Shown piece by piece: positions 4,106-59,954 of a DNA stretch of 64,000 bases. The position numbers and the translations under genes are program-made. Each line of letters opens with the position of its first letter. Position 1 is the first letter of the stretch. The notes under the pieces were generated by a model. The model saw only the letters and a program-made list of their open reading frames with translations, did no database searches and was not told the origin of the DNA. The stretch lies in contig JBBSBW010000006.1 in the NCBI GenBank assembly GCA_038250865.1, forward strand, positions 26,424 through 90,423. The letters are read 5' to 3'. The DNA comes from Thermoanaerobaculia bacterium (GTDB lineage Bacteria; Acidobacteriota; Thermoanaerobaculia; Multivoradales; UBA5704).

Positions 4106-6055
4106 TCAAATCGCGACCTCTTGGGCGATCGACGGCAGCCCCGGCCGCCCCCAGGGGGCCTTCTCCTGGGCCTGGTACTGAAGGCGGTAAAGGCGGTGGT
4201 AGATGCCGCGGGCGGCGAGCAGCTCCTGATGGGTGCCCTGCTCGCGTAGCTCCCCTTTATGCAAGACCAGGATCTTGTCCGCCCGCTGGATCGTCGACAA
4301 GCGGTGGGCGATCACCAGGCTGGTCCGGCCGACCAACAGCCGTTCGAGCGCCGCCTGGATCAATTGTTCCGTCTCGGTGTCGATCGACGAAGTCGCCTCG
4401 TCGAGGATCAGGACCCGCGGGTCGAACGCGAGCGCCCGGGCGAAGGCCACCAGCTGCTTCTGACCGACCGAAAGACCGGCGCCGCGCTCCTGCACCAGCG
4501 TGTCGAAGCCTTCGGGAAGGCGCTCGATGAATTCGAGGGCGTGAACCTCACGGGCGGCCCAACGCAGCTGCGCCTCGTCGATCGACGGCTCGCCAAGGCG
4601 GATATTGCCGCCGATCGAGCCGGAAAACAGGAAGACGTCCTGCAGCACCAGGGCGATGCTCCGGCGCAGCTCGGAGAGATCCCAATCGCGAACGTCGATG
4701 CCGTCGACTTTGACCGCGCCTTGCTGGACGTCGTAGAAGCGGAGCAACAGGTTGGCAAGCGTGCTCTTTCCCGCCCCGGTGTGACCGACCACCGCGACCG
4801 TCTGGCCGGGCTCGACCCGGAACGACACGTCGCGCAGCACCGGCTCTCCCGGTTTATACGCGAACGTGACCTGCGCCAGCTCGATCGCACCGCGCGCCAC
4901 CGAGCCCTTCCGGTTCGGTCCAGGCGCCTCGCTCGCGTCGCCCGGTCGGTAGGCCGTCTCCGGACTGGTGATCGCGACATCCGTGTCGATCAGCTCGAAG
5001 ATCCGCTCCGAGGCGGCCATCGCCCCTTGGAGGATGTTGTACTTCTCGGCCAGGTCGGAGAGCGGCTGGTAGAACCGCTGGGCGTACTGGAAGAACGCCA
5101 CCAGCGCGCCGACCGAGGCAAAGCCGGCGGTCACCCGGCCGCCGCCGTACCAGAGCAGCAGGCCGAGACCGAGCGTGCTGACCAGCTCGACGCCGGGAAA
5201 GAACACCGCGTAGTAATAGATCGAACGGACGTTCGCCTCGCGGTGCTCGTCGTTGATGGTCGAGAACTCGTCATAGGCCTTGGCCTCGCGGCCGAAGAGC
5301 TGGACCACCGACATTCCGGTGATGTGCTCCTGAAGGAACGAGTTGATCTTTGCGATCTTCACCCGAACCTCGCGGAAGCTGCGCTGCACTTTGGAGCGAA
5401 ACCAGAACGTCAGGACGAACAGGAGCGGCACGATGGCGAACGCGATCAGCGCCAATCGCCAATCGAGCCAGAACAGGACGCAGACGATGCCGGCGAGAAC
5501 CATGACGTCCCCGAACGCGGCGACCAGGCCGGAGGCGAACAGCTCGTTGAGCGCATCGACGTCGGTGGTCACTCGGGTGACCAGGCGGCCGACCGGATTG
5601 GCGTCGAAATAGGAGATCGGCAGGCGCTGAAGCTGGCGGAAGATCTGTCCCCGCAGGTCGCGCATGATGTACTGCCCCATCACCTGCATCACCCGGCCCT
5701 GCCAATAAGTGCAAACGAAGGCGAGCACGATCGAGATCAGGAAGATCGCAGCGGTGGCGGCGATCCCTTGGAGCCGCGCCGCACCAGGCTCGATCCCATA
5801 AAAGTGGAGCATGTCGCCCGCGGCCACCGCGGCGGGCGAGATCCCGCCGGCCGCGCCGGGAGGCCGGATGAACAGGTCGATCGCGATCGAGGTGGCGAGC
5901 GGGCCGATCAGCTGGAGCAGAGAGCCGCCGAGGATCAGCGCCAACGCGGCGGCCGTCATGCCCCGATACGGCCGGACATAGCCAAGCAGCCGGCGCATCA
6001 GCCGGGAGTCGTACGACTTTTCGATCGCCTCTTCGGCGTGCGGATCGGCGGCCAT
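4106..6055 (-). CDS. ABC transporter permease/ATP-binding fusion (MsbA-like exporter)
   Basis: N-terminal 6-TM domain (SYDSRLMRRLLGYVRPYR...), Walker A GHTGAGKST, ABC signature LSVGQKQLVAFARAL, Walker B LILDEATSSID. Confidence 0.9.
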   Translation of the reverse strand: MAADPHAEEAIEKSYDSRLMRRLLGYVRPYRGMTAAALALILGGSLLQLIGPLATSIAIDLFIRPPGAAGGISPAAVAAGDMLHFYGIEPGAARLQGIAATAAIFLISIVLAFVCTYWQGRVMQVMGQYIMRDLRGQIFRQLQRLPISYFDANPVGRLVTRVTTDVDALNELFASGLVAAFGDVMVLAGIVCVLFWLDWRLALIAFAIVPLLFVLTFWFRSKVQRSFREVRVKIAKINSFLQEHITGMSVVQLFGREAKAYDEFSTINDEHREANVRSIYYYAVFFPGVELVSTLGLGLLLWYGGGRVTAGFASVGALVAFFQYAQRFYQPLSDLAEKYNILQGAMAASERIFELIDTDVAITSPETAYRPGDASEAPGPNRKGSVARGAIELAQVTFAYKPGEPVLRDVSFRVEPGQTVAVVGHTGAGKSTLANLLLRFYDVQQGAVKVDGIDVRDWDLSELRRSIALVLQDVFLFSGSIGGNIRLGEPSIDEAQLRWAAREVHALEFIERLPEGFDTLVQERGAGLSVGQKQLVAFARALAFDPRVLILDEATSSIDTETEQLIQAALERLLVGRTSLVIAHRLSTIQRADKILVLHKGELREQGTHQELLAARGIYHRLYRLQYQAQEKAPWGRPGLPSIAQEVAI

Positions 6056-23724: not shown

Positions 23725-24040
23725 GGAATTCGATTTTCCGGGAGAGAAATTCGATTTCGCGGACGAGAAAATCGATTTTCCGGACCGGGTGAACGATTTC
23801 GCCGGTGAGAAAATCGATTTTCCAGCCGGGAAAACTGATTTCGCGAGCCAGAAGAACGCTTTTGCGGGTGGGAAATTCGATTTCGCGGGTGAGAAAATCG
23901 ATTTCGCGAGCCGGATGAACGATTTCGCCGACCAGGAATTCGAATTTCTCGGCGGGAAAAACGAATTCGCCGACGAGAAAATTGAATTTCCGGGCCGGAT
24001 GAACGATTTCGCGGGTCGAAAAATCGATTTCGCCGACCGA
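23725..24040. repeat. Non-coding tandem array of 15 units of about 21 bp, each carrying the palindrome AAATCGATTT
   Basis: Units such as GAGAAAATCGATTTCGCGGAC repeat head-to-tail with 20-22 bp spacing. The reading frame is not conserved across units and no minus-strand ORF covers it. The plus-strand ORF 23789-24427 is a repeat artefact running antisense into marR. Confidence 0.85.
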
Positions 24041-24070
24041 ATGGACGGGGCGTCCGAAGCTCGGCGGCGG

Positions 24071-24484
24071 CTACGAGTCCCGCCCCAGTTCGGCCAAAAG
24101 CTCGGCCAGCTCCGGTCCGATGCGCCGCAACTCGGCGCGGTGCGCGGCGGCGAGGCTTGCCAGTGCGCTTCGCCCTTCGGTGGTGAGACGAACGCGGACT
24201 TGGCGGCGATCGTTGTCGGAGCGCACGCGTTCGACCAAATCCTTGGCGGCCAAGCGATCGACCAGACCTACGGCGCTGTGAGGGCGCACCGCGAGTTCGA
24301 TCGCGATCTCGCCGATCGTCATCGGCTCGTCCTGTACCCCCCTGAGCGCGAGGAGAGCCTGATGCTGCTGCGGCGTCAGGCCCGCGAGGCGCGCGGCCTC
24401 TTCGCTGAACCGGAGAAAACGCCGTAGAGAGGCGCGGAATCGCGCCAACATGCGGAACTGTCCGTCGCTCACCGGTTCGGGCAC
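24071..24484 (-). CDS. MarR family transcriptional regulator
   Basis: Winged-HTH MarR signature (LTPQQHQALLAL...MTIGEIAIELAVRPHSAVGLVDRLAAKDLVERVRSDNDRRQVRVRLTTEG). Confidence 0.85.
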   Translation of the reverse strand: MPEPVSDGQFRMLARFRASLRRFLRFSEEAARLAGLTPQQHQALLALRGVQDEPMTIGEIAIELAVRPHSAVGLVDRLAAKDLVERVRSDNDRRQVRVRLTTEGRSALASLAAAHRAELRRIGPELAELLAELGRDS

Positions 24485-24577
24485 GGCGACATTCTACTTC
24501 TCGCTTCTATCGTTCTACGATATATATTCCCTGCGCCGCGATTTTTCGTCCGCACCCTTTGGAGGTCACTTGAAGCG

Positions 24578-41654: not shown

Positions 41655-41998
41655 GGGGGCGTACCGGTTTCGACGGGGAACAAAGCGGTGCGGGGGTTGC
41701 GTGTCGAGGTCGACTCGTAAAATCGATTTTTTAACTGCGAACGACAACTTCGCTCTCGCGGCCTAAACGGCTGTGACGTCAATAGGGGGGCTCTGACCCG
41801 CTGCACCCCTAAAGACGCCGACAATGCGGGTCAATGGGTCCGGAGGCCTCGCGACGGACCCAGATACTAGCGAGGATAACTGCCGCGCGCGGCGCCTTCA
41901 CTCGAAGCGCGGCGGTGAAAAAGAAGTGAGGGCTACGCACGTAGATGCCACCGCGACGCGTTTTCCGGACGTGGGTTCGACTCCCACCGCCTCCACCA
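41655..41998 (+). ncRNA. ssrA: tmRNA (SsrA), tag peptide ANDNFALAA
   Basis: 5' GGGGGCGUACCGGUUUCGACGGGG tRNA-like acceptor/D analogue, resume-codon ORF gcg aac gac aac ttc gct ctc gcg gcc taa (41737-41766), 3' T-arm GGGUUCGACUCCCACC and ...CUCCACCA. Confidence 0.9.
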
Positions 41999-55566: not shown

Positions 55567-55773
55567 TTAGGGCAGATCGATGCCGCCCGGATGAAACGGT
55601 TGACACCGCATCAGTCGCCCGCCCGCGAGCCAGGCGCCGCGCGCCAGCCCATGCTCCAGAATGGCGAGCTGGGCGTACTCCGAGCAGGTCGGCGTAAAAC
55701 GGCACGAACGCGGCAGAAACGGCGAGATCCGTCGCTTGTAGAACCTCAGCGCGGCGACCGCCAGACGCTTCAC
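55567..55773 (-). CDS. yidD: Membrane protein insertion efficiency factor YidD
   Basis: [33 protein letters not shown] signature. Confidence 0.9.
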
Positions 55774-56192
55774 CGGGACCCTCCGCGCGGCATCGCGCCG
55801 CGCCAGAGACGGATCAAATCCTCGACGAAATTCCGAGGATCTGCCTTGGCGGCTTCCGGTTTCAGATGTACCACGAGATCCAAGGGGGGAAGTCCGCCGC
55901 GTTCCGTCCAGCGGCGATACGTCTCTCGAATCCGCCTCTTGAGGCGATGTCGGACCACCGAGTTACCCACCTTGCGGCTGGCGGTTACCCCCAGCCGTGG
56001 CCGACCTTCGGTGTTCGGGGCGAAGTATAAAATCGATAAAGAGCCGGTCCGTCGACGTCCAGTTCGGTAGCAGCGCAGGAAATCAGCTCTCCGCCTCAAA
56101 CGATCCTCGCTCCGAAATCCCTCGCTTCGAGAGGCCCCGTGAGCAGAATTGGGAGGGGAAAAGGACCGAGGCGGATCCTGTGCTTCCGACAT
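55770..56192 (-). CDS. rnpA: Ribonuclease P protein component RnpA
   Basis: The start is reassigned to MSEAQDPP (TGATG overlap with the rpmH stop). RNR-motif region [12 protein letters not shown]; GTGA overlap with the yidD start. Confidence 0.8.
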
Positions 56193-56326
56193 CAGACGGC
56201 TAGGCGGTGACGACCCTTCCGGCGACGACGTCCGATGACCGCACGGCCGTTCCGGGTACGCATCCGAACCAGAAATCCGTGAGTCCGCTTGCGCCGCCGG
56301 TTGTTGGGCTGAAACGTCCGCTTCAC
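56192..56326 (-). CDS. rpmH: 50S ribosomal protein L34
   Basis: GTG start. Encodes [44 protein letters not shown], not in the ORF track (<60 aa). Confidence 0.85.
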
Positions 56327-56505: not shown

Positions 56506-56595
56506 TGGCGGAGAGGGTGGGATTCGAACCCACGGACCGATTTCCCGGTCAACGGTTTTCGAGACCGTCCCATTCGACCGCTCTGGCACCTCTCC
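56506..56595 (-). tRNA. tRNA-Ser (anticodon CGA)
   Basis: Cloverleaf: acceptor GGAGAGG, anticodon loop CUCGAAA, long variable arm, T-arm GGTTCGAATCC, encoded CCA. Confidence 0.85.
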
Positions 56596-56607
56596 AGTTA
56601 CTACTTT

Positions 56608-56698
56608 TGGCGGTGAGGGTGGGATTCGAACCCACGGTAGAGTTGCCCCTACACACGCTTTCCAAGCGTGCTCCTTAAGCCACTCGGACACCTCACCC
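56608..56698 (-). tRNA. tRNA-Ser (anticodon GGA)
   Basis: Acceptor GGGTGAGG, anticodon loop UUGGAAA, long variable arm, T-arm GGTTCGAATCC, encoded CCA. Confidence 0.85.
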
Positions 56699-56715
56699 AC
56701 GGCTTTTAAAGAACC

Positions 56716-57150
56716 TTACTTGCTCCGCAGCCGGGCGAAGAATTGACGGAGAACGTCCCCGCATTCCTCTTCCAGCACGCCGTCCACCACTTCGAGGCGA
56801 TGGTTCAAGCGAACATCCGCAACCAGATTGCCTAGACTACCGCAGTAACCGGCTTTCGGGTCCGAAGCACCAAAAACCAGACGCTCGACGCGGCTCGCGA
56901 CCAGAGCCCCCGCGCACATCGCGCAGGGTTCGAGGGTGACGTAAAGGGTGCATCCCGTCAGCCGCCACCCCCCGACCTGCTTGCCCGCCTCGCGAATCGC
57001 CAGGATCTCAGCGTGGCCCAAAGGGTCGCCGTCGATCTCCCGTCGATTGTAGCCACGCCCCACCACCTCGCCGCCGCGGACGATCACCGCGCCGATCGGC
57101 ACTTCGCCGAGCGCTTCGGCCCGGCGGGCCTCCTCAAGCGCCAGCTCCAT
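56716..57150 (-). CDS. tadA: tRNA-specific adenosine deaminase TadA
   Basis: HAEILAIREAG...TLEPCAMCAGA zinc-binding CDA motifs. The start is placed at MELALEEARRA; the long upstream read-through in the ORF track is treated as non-coding. Confidence 0.8.
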   Translation of the reverse strand: MELALEEARRAEALGEVPIGAVIVRGGEVVGRGYNRREIDGDPLGHAEILAIREAGKQVGGWRLTGCTLYVTLEPCAMCAGALVASRVERLVFGASDPKAGYCGSLGNLVADVRLNHRLEVVDGVLEEECGDVLRQFFARLRSK

Positions 57151-57318
57151 CCAAGCCTTGTCCACTTCGGAGAACAAAAGAGCCTCCACAACCGGCTGAC
57201 GAGCGGGGGATGATAGATGAAGTCCCGCGCCAGGTAAACCTTGCGCGTGGACGGTCCGGTTCCAGACGAGAGCAGAAGCGGTCTCGCCGAGAACGGCGGT
57301 GAGCCGACCCGGGCCAGC

Positions 57319-57531
57319 GGTGGTCCCGATCAGAACAGTAGTGGTTCCGACCCGAACACTGGTGATCTGGACCAAAACCGGGGTGGTCTCGACCAAACCA
57401 GAGGCGATCCCGACTGGAACAGGGGTGAGCTGGACCTAAACAGTGGTGGTCCCGACCGGAACAGGGGTGAGCTGGACCAGGCCCGTGGTGGTCCCGGCCA
57501 GATCAGCGGCGGGCTGGACCCGACCGCTTTG
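57319..57531. repeat. About 10 tandem units of a 21-bp repeat (consensus GGTGGTCCCGACCGGAACAGG), each with a short interrupted palindrome GGTC-nn-GACC
   Basis: Direct reading of head-to-tail units. Unit length is exactly 21, so the frame is preserved through the XRE gene's C-terminus and through the antisense ORF 57241-57726. Confidence 0.8.
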
Positions 57532-58136
57532 CCACTTGGAGGCCCAACTCGGCGAGAGCGAGTGCTTCGTCCGGATCGCTCAGCGCCAACTCTCTCGCTT
57601 TCTTCGGCCAGCCGTTCGACCAACGCAGGGCTCCAAAACGGTGGGGAGTACTCGGCCAGCATCAGGCGCTGGTCTCTGGGGAGGTCGGAGAGTCGGCGCC
57701 ATAGCTCTTCGGCGTCGGTCCGTTGATCCTCGGCCGAGCGGGCGCGGGGCTGTAAGGCCATGGCGACCCGGAGGAGCGCACCTTCAACGATCTTCCGGAC
57801 GCGGTCGCCGGTCACCGAGGAACAGGCGGAGTCCAACGGGCTGATTCCGTTGGCCGCCGGCCGCCGGATCGATTCGGCCGCTTCGACCACCGCCTTTACG
57901 GTCGTCCCTAACGCGGCGGCCATTCGGTCGAGGGTGCCGGGTCGAGGGATCTTGTCGCCCGTTTCGTAGGCCGAGATCTGCGTCCGGTGCATCTTCACGG
58001 CTCGGCCAAACTCCTCCTGCGTCATTCCCTGGGACGCCCGGAGCATCAACACCAACGTCGCCTCGGTGACGGCCTCGCCCTGGAGCGTTAAAACCGTCGA
58101 ATCGGGCTGTATCTTGCCTTTCGGGTAGCGTGACAT
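57330..58136 (-). CDS. XRE-family HTH transcriptional regulator with a C-terminal tail of 7-residue tandem repeats
   Basis: Cro/C1-type HTH (MTQEEFGRAVKMHRTQISAYETGDKIPRPGTLDRMAAALG). The last 65 aa or so, SSPLFRS GPPLFRS SSPLFQS GSPLVWS RPPRFWS RSPVFGS, are encoded by 21-bp DNA tandem repeats. Confidence 0.55.
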   Translation of the reverse strand: MSRYPKGKIQPDSTVLTLQGEAVTEATLVLMLRASQGMTQEEFGRAVKMHRTQISAYETGDKIPRPGTLDRMAAALGTTVKAVVEAAESIRRPAANGISPLDSACSSVTGDRVRKIVEGALLRVAMALQPRARSAEDQRTDAEELWRRLSDLPRDQRLMLAEYSPPFWSPALVERLAEESERVGAERSGRSTRSRRVGPPSGKAVGSSPPLIWPGPPRAWSSSPLFRSGPPLFRSSSPLFQSGSPLVWSRPPRFWSRSPVFGSEPLLF

Positions 58137-58226
58137 AGCCTTTCACCCGTTTAAACGGGAATTCCTTTCCGCGACACTCCGGTCGCCGGATCTTCCGGTG
58201 CGCCGAAATCCCCAAGGAGGATTACC

Positions 58227-58550
58227 GTGAAACCGCCTCTCCGCCGTCTCGCCGTCTCTATAGCACTCGCCTTCGCGCTCCAGCTGACCCTTCCCCCGGC
58301 GGCGGTCAGCGCACCGAAAGATGTGGGCCTTCGGTTTGGTGATTGGCTCGGATTCCTGTCTCGCCTCTGGGCTCCGGAAGGGTGCAGCATCGATCCGGGT
58401 GGGCGATGCACTGTTGAGCCCAAGCAGGTCGTGCAGAACAATGGTTGCAGCTTCGATCCCCATGGCGGTTGCCGCGAAAGCGACGCGACCACCCCGGCCC
58501 CCCGGGACAATGGCTGCATCTTCGACCCAGGCGGCCTCTGCGCGAACTGA
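58227..58550 (+). CDS. Small secreted protein with three Cys-pair repeats NGC(S/I)(I/F)DP(G/H)GxC
   Basis: Strong RBS AAGGAGG 6 nt before the GTG start; signal peptide MKPPLRRLAVSIALAFALQLTLPPAAVSA. Three repeats (GCSIDPGGRC, GCSFDPHGGC, GCIFDPGGLC). Divergent from the XRE regulator with a 90-bp intergenic gap. Confidence 0.55.
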   Translation: MKPPLRRLAVSIALAFALQLTLPPAAVSAPKDVGLRFGDWLGFLSRLWAPEGCSIDPGGRCTVEPKQVVQNNGCSFDPHGGCRESDATTPAPRDNGCIFDPGGLCAN

Positions 58551-59270
58551 CAATCGAAAGCCCACGATAGAGATCCACGCAGCTGGTGCCCGTATGCCAC
58601 CGGCTGCGTCAGCCATTCGACCCACCCACGGAGGCAGCCATTAAGTTCCCGCGCGGGGCGCCCACGGCAATCAAGGCGCGTTGCGCCTCGCGGGCCAGCT
58701 CGACGGTCGCCTTTTCCCGCTCGGCGGCCTCCAGGAACAGGCGAACCGCCGCCAACTCCTCGCGCTCGATTCTCACCGCTCGGAAGACCGCGGCGGTCTG
58801 GCGTGCCGGGCTCTTGGTCTCTCGAAGCCGCCCGGCCGATAGGTAAACCATGGCCAGATCAAGCGCTGCGAGTGCCGCGTCGTACGCAATCTTTCGCGCG
58901 GCGAAGTCCCGCCAGACCTGATCGAGTGCTGCGGCGGCCCGCTCGCCTTGCCCGGTTACCGCCGTAGCCTTACCTTCCGCCGAGCACGTCCCGTATCAAC
59001 TTGTACGCGGCGTTCGTCGAGTGCGAAAACGTCTGCTTCGGCGTCGGTGCCATGTTTGGCCTCGTGGGTGATTTCATAGAGCAGGGCGTTACGAACCCTC
59101 CGAACGTGACAACAAGCGATGACGGCGAGTGCCCTTCCGGGCGCTTTTTTCGGGTACCCACCCCTCGCGGTGATTTAAAAAGACAACCGGTAGCTTGGCG
59201 CGACCTTCGGAGGTTTGCAAGAGCTGGCGGCGCGAGGGGCTCTAGCCTTTCACCATGGAGGGCCCGGCAC

Positions 59271-59691
59271 AGTGAACGAGAAAATCGAAAAGCACCTGGT
59301 GCGGATCGAAAAAGCCCGTCGGCGATCCGGGCCCTTGCGCGAGACGGTGATCTTGAGTCTCCGCGGAATTCCGCACATCCGCCGGATCATCGAATTCTTC
59401 CTCGAAGGGCTGAGGCGCGAAGCGCCGCCGCCCGATCCGCGGCAGCTCGGCGAATCGACCTACCGGGCGGAGGTGCGCGCGGCAGCGGCCGAGTTGCATC
59501 ACGTCCCAGATTTCTTGGCCGAATCGGCGCGCCGGTTGCTCGCCCGGGAAGGAGTTGAAGGGGCCGCGATCGATCCCGCCGACCGGCGGCTGTGCAAGTG
59601 GGTGGAGGAGCAGCGCCGCGAAGTACTGCGACTGGCCGTACGGTTCGAGCGGCGGGTGGGCCCGGCGCCGGAGGGCGGGGAAGAAGGCTGA
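59271..59691 (+). CDS. Hypothetical protein (about 140 aa)
   Basis: GTG start after GGAGGG. Helical, Arg/Glu-rich; no family recognised. Sits upstream of ffs and dnaX. Confidence 0.35.
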
Positions 59692-59841
59692 CCGGCGGCG
59701 ACCTACTCCGGGAAGCAGAAACAAAGTTCCCGAAAAAGTATCGGTTTCTCGCGCACCTATCGGTTAAAGTCTCCCACGCCGACACCACGCCTTTACAGCG
59801 TCCCGGCCGAGAACATAGGATCAACTCTCCCGGCAGGGACC

Positions 59842-59954
59842 GACGAAGGGTTCGGGTCCTGTGCATCGATCCTCACCGAACCTCGTCAGGCCCGGAAGGG
59901 AGCAGCGATAAGGTTGGGCGACCGAGTGCCGCAGATCAACCGGAACCCTTCGTC
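59842..59954 (+). ncRNA. ffs: Signal recognition particle RNA (small 4.5S type, ffs)
   Basis: Domain IV core GUCAGGCCCGGAAGGGAGCAGC. A terminal helix is formed by GACGAAGGGTTCGG (59842-59855) pairing with CGGAACCCTTCGTC (59941-59954). Canonical position immediately upstream of dnaX. Confidence 0.7.

Follow-up and report, generated by a model that had tools for sequence, protein, structure and literature searches.

Within the 64,000-nucleotide stretch of DNA analysed here (the window), a 268-aa ORF (57330-58136, minus strand) begins as an XRE regulator and stays open through a tandem array of 21-bp units. A first-pass annotation gave the same translation and took the C terminus for a tail of perfect heptad repeats whose length is tuned by slipped-strand copy-number change; as an alternative, it suggested that the protein stops earlier and that the array is non-coding, as at 23725-24040. 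Does the array encode a functional part of the regulator, or does the gene end before it? It is the alternative that the evidence supports: the segment 57277-57528 is, with high probability, a non-coding, partly decayed, interspersed 21-bp minisatellite of a MIRU-like kind, combined with a lineage-specific frameshift in the XRE gene.

The reading frame of the XRE gene

The N-terminal part of the ORF qualifies as an XRE (Cro/C1) HTH regulator, as first annotated: residues 32 to 79 (57900-58043, minus strand) match Pfam HTH_3 with E = 2e-12 (47.4 bits, cutoff 23) and HTH_31 with E = 1.7e-11. Next comes a conserved middle domain of the XRE subfamily, delimited by BLASTP and phmmer (residues 80-181; 57594-57899, minus strand), which ends ...LVERLAEESE. 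The tail had been placed directly after the HTH domain, but it is separated from that domain by about 100 conserved residues (80-181) and by 21 codons that are out of frame. In the subfamily members P0002, P0015, and P0025, the middle domain ends ...LVER.A.ESE and is followed in the same frame by a helix, D..EAL.LAELAL.VA(E/K)R. The window ORF departs from this signature: the middle domain is present, but one extra T has put the helix into a different frame. BLASTP homology to P0002 stops at residue 181 of the window ORF, and a tblastn search with P0002 picked it up again at 57586-57524, in another frame (15/21 identical, E = 4e-5). This segment (57524-57586, minus strand; ALSDPDEALALAELGLQVAKR) is the remnant of a conserved C-terminal helix that is also found in L003, P0015, and P0025. 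Many relatives align up to about residue 181-203, and those identified by phmmer retain the helix, often with a TPR-like extension added. Exact-protein look-ups with P0001 and with TadA gave no match.

For the orthologue comparison of the XRE locus we used one close orthologue, L003, which has 85% aa identity and shares the synteny XRE-array-tadA-tRNA-Ser-rnpA-rpmH. Pairwise DNA alignments with L003 locate the extra T of the window as one of two adjacent T at 57588-57589 (minus strand). When it was deleted in silico, we obtained a 210-aa protein with an L003-like C terminus that ends at a TGA (57503-57505, minus strand) inside the first repeat unit. The context of this TGA, CGCTGATCTGGCCGGGACCACCAC, is identical in the window and L003, and the L003 XRE frame reads ...LGLQVAKRAGSAHR and ends at the TGA just before its own 9.5-unit array. 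The ancestral XRE frame terminated at this codon, and in the window genome the extra T puts the gene out of frame, with loss of the terminal helix and bypass of the TGA. Since the unit length is divisible by three and the new frame has no stop before 57330, a ribosome would then read on through 66 codons of repeat. As judged from these alignments, the tail arises from a lineage-specific +1 frameshift that destroyed the conserved C-terminal helix.

The codon-position statistics fall into two parts. Residues 1-181 differ from L003 by 13/3/31 substitutions at codon positions 1/2/3, a pattern that indicates purifying selection until recently, and their GC content at these positions is 66/51/81. 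The 21 codons after the shift, read in the frame of the ORF, give 71/86/38, an out-of-frame signature.

This history of selection is also what a sequencing error would predict, that is, a real XRE protein of 210 aa with its stop at 57503-57505 and no tail ORF. It is suspicious, moreover, that each of both MAG orthologues has exactly one private 1-nt indel. Against an error, the 268-aa ORF occurs both in NCBI (P0001) and in SRR19962010 as assembled independently by Logan (P0162/L022). The latter has DNA 100% identical to the window over 56665-59904 (3240 bp), extra T included, which excludes an assembler artefact as the source of the ORF; if the two assemblies go back to the same reads, a systematic read error could persist in both. 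The L003 indel is likewise reproduced in a Logan assembly, P0163. We therefore regard a sequencing error as unlikely.

A dispersed family of 21-bp repeats

The array at 57277-57528 comprises about 12 degenerate units, as seen by TRF, register lay-outs, and lag-21 autocorrelation. Its sense (minus) strand reads CACC-N-CTGTT-YNGGTC-SRGNN, and the family sense consensus is CACCACTGTTCTGGCCCAGAT. TRF reported period 21 at 57361-57479 (66% matches, 0 indels) and period 42 at 57315-57520 (72% matches). The lag-21 self-match was 0.67 compared with a window background of 0.307 +/- 0.054, and the only other comparable peak within the window is the array at 23.7 kb. The exact 21-bp register that had been described is therefore real. 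The units, however, are not perfect: the 21-mer quoted for them occurs exactly once and twice more within 3 mismatches, and GGTC-nn-GACC, said to be carried by every unit, has an exact match in just two of them (57385 and 57448) and is nearly absent from the orthologous L003 array. What each unit holds is a palindrome, TCTGG-N-CCAGA (5-bp arms, 1-nt centre), and an asymmetric spacer.

The array occupies the spacer that separates the XRE gene from the gene following it on that strand, tadA (tRNA adenosine deaminase; 56716-57150, minus strand), which was identified by L003 synteny and by Pfam (MafB19-deam, E = 4e-43; dCMP_cyt_deam_1, E = 1e-31). It lies about 40 bp upstream of a predicted sigma-70-like tadA promoter, TTTACC-17-TATCAT (57210-57238, minus strand). 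This site is the only one that the promoter scan returned in 57050-58300 (0.1 expected), and it is conserved in L003.

The second array (23725-24040, minus strand), resolved by TRF and lay-out, has 15 units that read GAAAATCGATTTCGCGGACGA on the plus strand. It sits after the stop codon (24071-24073, minus strand) of a gene assigned to MarR by Pfam, and it belongs to a different dispersed 21-bp family, with members P0009-P0012/L019-L021. The two arrays share a design, as had been noticed: a 21-bp period and a short palindrome, here GAAATCGATTTC, with an asymmetric spacer. Both also come after HTH regulator genes. Copy number shifts in whole units, in keeping with the first description: the L003 array is 42 bp longer than its window orthologue, and L019, the orthologue of the 23.7-kb array, is one unit (21 bp) shorter than the window. 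For the family of this second array (family 1), the window/L019 and L021 loci are consistent with an orientation locked to the upstream gene and with stop overlap.

A pattern scan detected the unit family of the XRE-side array on 7 further contigs of one metagenome, which we assume to share one genome, and a translated-repeat search added 3 more contigs, other samples among their sources. These members, L009-L018, represent 10 further loci with differing flanking genes. The arrays have 7-16 units and lie, in other contigs, beside unrelated housekeeping genes; the neighbours are Peptidase_C26, GT4, CarboxypepD_reg, LOG, YhbY, glucan phosphorylase, and DnaE, and most arrays do not adjoin a regulator gene. 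All six frames hit stops in some array of the family. At all 6 loci with a known upstream gene, the CACCACTGTT strand is the sense strand of that gene. In five of these six, the upstream gene has its stop codon either inside the array (L003/window in the ancestral frame, L010, and L012) or no more than 30 nt away from it (L013 and L014). On the sense strand of every array C exceeds G, with a GC skew of -0.11 to -0.32. At three independent loci, the last few codons of the upstream gene already derive from the repeat.

Neither 21-bp family was found in IMG/VR contigs, and a phage origin of the repeats was rejected on this ground. A conserved terminal module flanking all arrays was likewise rejected, as a 3' flank of roughly 75 nt is common to L009 and L010 only. 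A presence/absence polymorphism between the window site at 59691 and L014 was downgraded, since L014 has two paralogues and the match is only 78%. A full-text literature search for a described Acidobacteria 21-bp repeat returned nothing relevant, and to our knowledge a dispersed, oriented 21-bp repeat family has not been described until now in Acidobacteriota.

Taken together, these results suggest how the arrays may have evolved. Slippage during replication or unequal recombination would lengthen or shorten them by 21 or 42 bp at a time, with units homogenised in some lineages (82-91% matches) and decaying in the window (66-72%). The family would have reached many intergenic sites, everywhere with the same orientation as the gene upstream, whose stop codon it often overlaps. 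Most likely, the arrays are selfish or neutral DNA carried in the 3' untranslated or intergenic parts of transcripts.

Roles considered for the array

A broader reading is possible but doubtful. The arrays may represent an Acidobacteriota class of at least two unrelated 21-bp families with shared period and palindrome design, in which the XRE-array family (family 2) is orientation-locked and stop-overlapping and the period reflects a functional or mechanistic constraint, not neutral slippage. If this were true, the constraint could come from a dimeric protein that binds in phase, for which the neighbouring HTH regulators are possible candidates, or from a role in the 3' UTR or in termination. 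Protein C termini would then be remodelled by the arrays as a side effect, as at the XRE locus.

One such role would be at the RNA level, with the array acting in the 3' untranslated region of the upstream gene as a C-rich Rho loading platform or a transcript-stability element. The orientation lock (6/6 loci), the position of the stop codons (5/6), and the excess of C over G on the sense strand all favour it, and so does the sense-strand centroid fold, which is essentially empty. The orientation bias could be explained by the direction of replication instead, and at L011 the next start codon lies 22 nt past the array, which argues against obligatory termination there. An Rfam scan of the window array gave no match at the gathering threshold or at E <= 1, and related arrays gave only spurious miRNA-precursor matches far below threshold. 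The predicted folds are of the generic fold-back type that a quasi-palindromic repeat gives (z = -1.9 in the case of the window array), and the palindrome revealed no compensatory changes (C-G at pair 12-18, 4 observed compared with 3.4 expected). A structured RNA was rejected on these grounds, and we consider an RNA-level role of the kind outlined improbable.

Still less probable is a cis-acting DNA element, that is, phased sites for a dimeric protein (the adjacent HTH regulator or a nucleoid protein) that would influence the tadA promoter or the local structure of the chromosome. A period of 21 bp corresponds to two turns of the helix, the palindrome and spacer recur in both families, and both window arrays follow regulator genes. 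At 23.7 kb, a solitary unit-like motif in the MarR promoter region (24539-24553) scored higher than any of 500 shuffles, and it is also conserved in L019. On the XRE side, however, the array does not significantly resemble either the XRE promoter region or a perfect 14-bp palindrome, CCCGTTTAAACGGG (58146-58159), that lies between the XRE gene and its divergent neighbour, is conserved in L003, and is a putative XRE operator. The array as a row of XRE operators was accordingly rejected. Against any cis-acting role also stand the position of most family members away from regulators, the lack of compensatory changes in the palindrome, and its degradation in the window's own units.

A functional PLF-heptad tail tuned by copy-number change, the reading favoured by the first-pass annotation, is very unlikely. 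Its frame is open and reproducible, the unit length is divisible by three, and orthologues differ by whole units. Nevertheless, there is no tail without a private insertion of 1 nt, which costs the protein a helix conserved in its family, L003 stops before its array, and the repeat is non-coding at other loci. When we searched 1.84 billion representatives with phmmer, 465 relatives matched and none aligned to the tail. The GC content of the tail at codon positions 1/2/3 (55/70/67) is unlike the coding pattern of residues 1-181. Nor do the substitutions show a third-position excess, either between the window and L003 arrays (19/9/17 by phase) or between the 23.7-kb array and its orthologue (12/14/12). 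With the repeat outside the conserved frame in L003 and no coding signature, the array is not an in-frame coding VNTR. Across the array family, the tail frame and its antisense partner have the fewest stops; weak coding constraint would predict this, and a stop-free consensus explains it equally well.

An N-terminal extension of TadA (TTVxVQI heptads) and a real gene in the plus-strand ORF 57241-57726 (GGPDxNR heptads) have a negligible probability. In L003 no stop interrupts the TTVPVQI frame between the array and tadA, and in L022 the tadA gene as called by gene callers reaches into the array; the extension was rejected because that frame has a stop (TAG) within the window array and a conserved promoter separates the array from tadA. 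The plus-strand ORF, already called a mirror artefact, has no Pfam match, and its sequence past the array and its stop are not conserved in L003; it was rejected as a shadow.

We return to the non-coding minisatellite with its frameshift. The PLF heptad tail is best seen as a by-product of a young frameshift, a sign of a decaying gene or a tolerated junk C terminus rather than an evolved domain, and going by the open frame it may be translated in this strain, tolerated or even used. A stop-free intergenic repeat with a unit length of 3n beside a stop codon means that a single indel creates a long new C terminus. Public annotations call ORFs across both arrays: the tail appears in P0001 and P0162, tadA is extended into the array in L022, and P0008 and P0009 are antisense to the MarR gene, which goes uncalled in L019. 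Such artefacts make their way into protein databases as "hypothetical repeat proteins". The arrays also break short-read assemblies, and they could serve as strain-typing markers.

Relation to known repeat systems

Iteron and centromere-like arrays (plasmid iterons, sopC, parC) also consist of direct repeats of about 20 bp with two-helical-turn phasing and some internal dyads. The array studied here differs in being chromosomal, multi-locus, and without adjacent rep or par genes. With the coding VNTRs of contingency genes it shares a unit divisible by three, a position within an annotated ORF, and whole-unit copy-number change, but the ancestral ORF does not include the repeat, which enters the reading frame only through a frameshift and is non-coding elsewhere.

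Cyanobacterial STRRs are short tandem arrays dispersed through non-coding DNA, and they form several sequence families in one genome. The 21-bp families resemble them in all of these respects, whereas STRR units are heptanucleotides and the 21-bp unit has no internal 7-bp sub-repeat. The REP/BIME elements of enterobacteria and pseudomonads are likewise short palindromic repeats at gene 3' ends or in operons, dispersed and sometimes clustered in tandem. However, REPs are imperfect palindromes of about 35-40 nt that form stable hairpins, while the palindrome of a 21-bp unit is too short to fold, and REP clusters alternate in orientation, while the units here are direct. REPs are mobilised by RAYT transposases.

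The arrays resemble MIRU-VNTR loci in being head-to-tail tandem repeats at many intergenic loci with a copy number that varies between relatives or strains. Work by Supply et al. in 1997 and 2000 reportedly described MIRUs as co-oriented with the flanking genes of operons and overlapping their stop and start codons; the family of the window array, too, is intergenic, co-oriented with upstream genes, and abuts stop codons. No sequence similarity was observed or is expected, and the phylum here is Acidobacteriota. Moreover, each unit here holds a short palindrome, and two sequence-unrelated families share the 21-bp period. MIRUs are tandem repeats of 46-101 bp at 41 loci in M. tuberculosis H37Rv (PMC3914561), and with a unit of 21 bp the array described here is an analogue of the MIRUs, not a member.

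The XRE reading frame and its extra base

The minus-strand ORF at 57330-58136 (268 aa) is open across the 21-bp tandem array that lies between the XRE gene and tadA (57277-57528, here array 2), and its translation through the array matches that of the first-pass annotation. Its N-terminal part was described there as a bona fide Cro/C1 HTH domain, which was borne out (Pfam HTH_3, E = 2e-12, residues 32-79), while the placement of the repeat tail directly after this domain was overstated, with about 120 residues in between. The only non-self relative from a word-indexed search, P0002 (48% identity), gave a BLASTP alignment that stops exactly at residue 181 (...LVERLAEESE). Using tblastn, we found that the homology picks up two residues on in another frame (ALSDPDEALALAELGLQVAKR versus ARRDADEALAFAELALQVAER, window 57586-57524; 15/21 identical, E = 4e-5).

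A scan of species-representative genomes yielded a syntenic orthologue, L003 (JBDTZG010000039, an Acidobacteriota MAG), which is 85% identical and has the same order XRE-array-tadA-tRNA-Ser-rnpA-rpmH. The XRE frame in L003 ends ...LAEESKRVAQSDPDEAHALAELGLQVAKRAGSAHR*, at a TGA immediately 5' of its own 21-bp array, and this TGA plus its context, CGCTGATCTGGCCGGGACCACCAC, is the same sequence in both loci. DNA alignment revealed one extra T in the window at 57588/57589; when it was deleted in silico, a 210-aa protein with the C terminus ...LGLQVAKRSGPARR* was obtained, with its stop at 57505-57503. The GC content at codon positions 1/2/3 agrees with a frameshift: it is coding-like for residues 1-181 (66/51/81%), shows a classic out-of-frame pattern in the 21 codons past the shift (71/86/38%), and is not coding-like in the repeat tail (55/70/67%). 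With phmmer, run exhaustively on 1.84 billion representatives, we obtained 465 hits, and the tail lies outside every alignment; the longer relatives retain the C-terminal helix, often with a TPR-like extension after it. The headline proposal of a functional heptad tail is unsupported, whereas the alternative offered with it, an earlier end of the protein and a non-coding array, is supported. The tail arose by accident, through a single base inserted beside a stop-free repeat of length 3n.

Window 56665-59904, extra T and array included, has a 100% identical counterpart in an independent Logan assembly (run SRR19962010, L022), so that the fused ORF cannot be blamed on the assembler. In L003, the XRE gene carries a private deletion of 1 nt within the HTH region (L003 ~5400, window-equivalent 57928), which recurs in the Logan assembly P0163. 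A systematic read error would be compatible with the identical Logan assembly; that one or both indels are read errors is unlikely. Between the window and L003, residues 1-181 differ by 13/3/31 substitutions at codon positions 1/2/3, which indicates that purifying selection acted on the XRE gene during most of the time since the two diverged, and both orthologues carry independent frameshifts despite this pattern. The simplest reading is that the XRE copy was recently and independently inactivated or C-terminally damaged in both lineages.

Genes and gene calls around the array

A sigma-70-like promoter (TTTACC-17-TATCAT, 57238-57210), conserved in L003, lies between array 2 and tadA; no other such site occurs in 57050-58300, against a chance expectation of 0.1. 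This promoter and a TAG in that frame rule out the array as an N-terminal extension of TadA. The public tadA call in L022 is extended N-terminally into array 2. The plus-strand ORF at 57241-57726, already called a mirror artefact, is a shadow ORF whose conservation ends with the array. Public calls of 212 aa (P0008) and 259 aa (P0009) likewise cross the other 21-bp array (array 1), antisense to MarR; array-distorted calls lie at window 23789-24427 (+), L019 4001-4780 and L022 2530-3189, and in L019, the orthologous locus of that array, the antisense ORF is called and the MarR gene is not.

On the other side of the XRE gene, a 14-bp perfect palindrome, CCCGTTTAAACGGG (58146-58159), conserved in L003, is a putative XRE operator. 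It precedes a divergent gene for a small secreted Cys-rich protein (58227-58550, +) in which a ~21-aa repeat, GC.(I/F)DP.G.C (63-bp DNA period), occurs three or four times and which has no Pfam match. Copies occur at L003 4707-5099, L013 4905-5297, L001 3060-3377 and L007 about 5597-5717, and the XRE/small-repeat-protein pair is a recurrent multi-copy cassette in related genomes. The housekeeping loci at 41655-41998, 59850-59948, 56506-56697 and 55770-56326 comprise tmRNA (tag ANDNFALAA), small SRP RNA, two tRNA-Ser and rnpA-rpmH, and indicate that the region belongs to the chromosome of an Acidobacteriota.

Two dispersed families of 21-bp arrays

Array 2 is a genuine tandem DNA repeat. Tandem Repeats Finder called an exact 21-bp register without indels (57361-57479, 66% matches) and also period 42 (57315-57520, 72% matches); laid out in register, ~12 units are recognizable from ~57277 to 57528, and lag-21 self-identity reaches 0.67 at its peak, the window background being 0.307 +/- 0.054. 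These results confirm the exact 21-bp unit claimed earlier, but its regularity was overstated: the quoted 21-mer has one exact copy and two more at ≤3 mismatches, and GGTC-nn-GACC, reported for each unit, is exact in only two. Relative to the L003 array, it is shorter by two units (42 bp) and much more decayed.

We scanned JGI metagenome contigs with a degenerate pattern of one and a half units. Seven different contigs matched, all from one metagenome (Ga0134122), each with an array of 8-16 units from this family (82-91% matches; sense-strand consensus CACCACTGTTCTGGCCCAGAT), and a translated-repeat search added three further arrays, two of them in other samples. The adjoining genes are ordinary and unrelated to each other: a Peptidase_C26 amidotransferase with a dehydrogenase-like gene downstream (L010), a CarboxypepD_reg protein and a GT4 glycosyltransferase (L011), a LOG-family gene and YhbY (L012), an XRE paralogue and a convergent glucan phosphorylase (L013), and DnaE downstream (L015). 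At all six loci with a known upstream gene, the CACCACTGTT strand is the sense strand of that gene. The upstream stop lies inside the first units at three loci (L003/window in the ancestral frame, L010, L012), where a TGA stands in place of the unit's TGT codon in the HHCSGPD frame, and it is ≤30 nt from the array in L013 and L014. Three unrelated genes (L010 730-1521, L012 2591-3214, L003 5180-5821) have repeat-derived last 2-13 codons, and the L013 XRE paralogue, also in the HHCSGPD frame, stops 9 nt short of the array.

Stops occur in every one of the six reading frames, each in at least one array, no third-position excess was seen among substitutions between orthologous arrays, and all arrays have a C-rich sense strand (GC skew -0.11 to -0.32). 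Edges are more degenerate than centres and variant units, CACCACTGAGCTGG, terminate many arrays, as expected if slippage or unequal exchange homogenizes them. In the units of L009-L015, sense-strand C-to-T changes are frequent at positions 15-17 and mirror G-to-A changes few at 13-14 (about 26 versus 8 at paired positions, the units not being independent), an asymmetry only suggestive of transcription- or replication-linked deamination. L009 (893-970) and L010 (385-460) have in common, in sense orientation, a ~75-nt downstream module with a GC-rich hairpin, GCCGAGCTGGAGCTCGGC, while their upstream flanks differ and the other arrays are without it. A 276-bp tandem repeat in L015 (495-2893, 8.7 copies, 82% matches) is probably a coding repeat domain.

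The only other comparable lag-21 peak in the window (0.64) is array 1 (23725-24040; 15 units, + strand GAAAATCGATTTCGCGGACGA), 3' of the MarR stop codon. A translated-repeat search placed it in its own dispersed 21-bp family, whose members include L019 3939-4228 (GCA_038248205.1, the orthologous locus, one unit fewer) and at least three loci that are flanked differently (L020 2258-2528, L021 1144-1332 and P0012). They have a common end motif, translated ...RMNDFA.RKIEFADxIAGS.VR. Substitutions in array 1 are even by codon phase (12/14/12) and cluster at unit positions 16-21 and 1-6, with the core CGATTTCGC nearly invariant. Both families combine a short palindrome and an asymmetric spacer within exactly 21 bp, in line with the echo of design noted earlier.

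A solitary unit-like motif, CGATTTTTCGTCCGC, lies at 24539-24553, between the divergent MarR and ClC genes in their promoter region, and is inverted relative to array 1. In alignment it scores higher than any of 500 shuffles, and the region around it is 98% identical in L019, above its surroundings; it is a lead to possible regulator binding. A nearby inverted repeat, TATCGT-N3-ACGATA, is a candidate MarR operator. L020 also carries, at 12-1253 and ~1 kb from its array, a reverse transcriptase gene of the group II intron type (RVT_1 + GIIM).

Possible roles and comparison with known repeat classes

No Rfam family matched the array. The predicted folds are of the generic fold-back kind for a quasi-palindromic repeat, with an almost empty sense-strand centroid and a fold z of only -1.9 for array 2; we found no compensatory changes in the consensus 11-bp palindrome TCTGG-N-CCAGA and no significant similarity of array 2 to the XRE promoter region, CCCGTTTAAACGGG included. 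We therefore commit to reading array 2 as an interspersed minisatellite that is non-coding, in all likelihood selfish or neutral, and located in intergenic or 3'-untranslated parts of transcripts. This reading would be compatible with two roles. An RNA-level role linked to the upstream transcript, for which the C-rich, unstructured and orientation-locked array would speak, is improbable, and a phased protein-binding array, to which the 21 bp (two helical turns) would be suited, is more doubtful still.

REP/BIME elements differ from these arrays in being RAYT-associated hairpin formers whose orientation alternates; the STRR of cyanobacteria have 7-bp units, and plasmid iterons are a distinct class. 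The closest analogue is the mycobacterial MIRU class, whose members are co-oriented with their flanking genes and overlap stop and start codons. MIRUs are tandem repeats at 41 scattered intergenic loci with copy-number polymorphism (PMC3914561). The 21-bp repeats behave alike in their scattered intergenic arrays, copy-number variation, co-orientation and stop-codon overlap, but their unit is 21 bp instead of 46-101 bp and their sequence differs. Since unit length and sequence are outside the family definition, the repeats are a MIRU counterpart in another phylum and not MIRUs themselves. Of greater interest are the repeat family itself and the 21-bp architecture common to two families.
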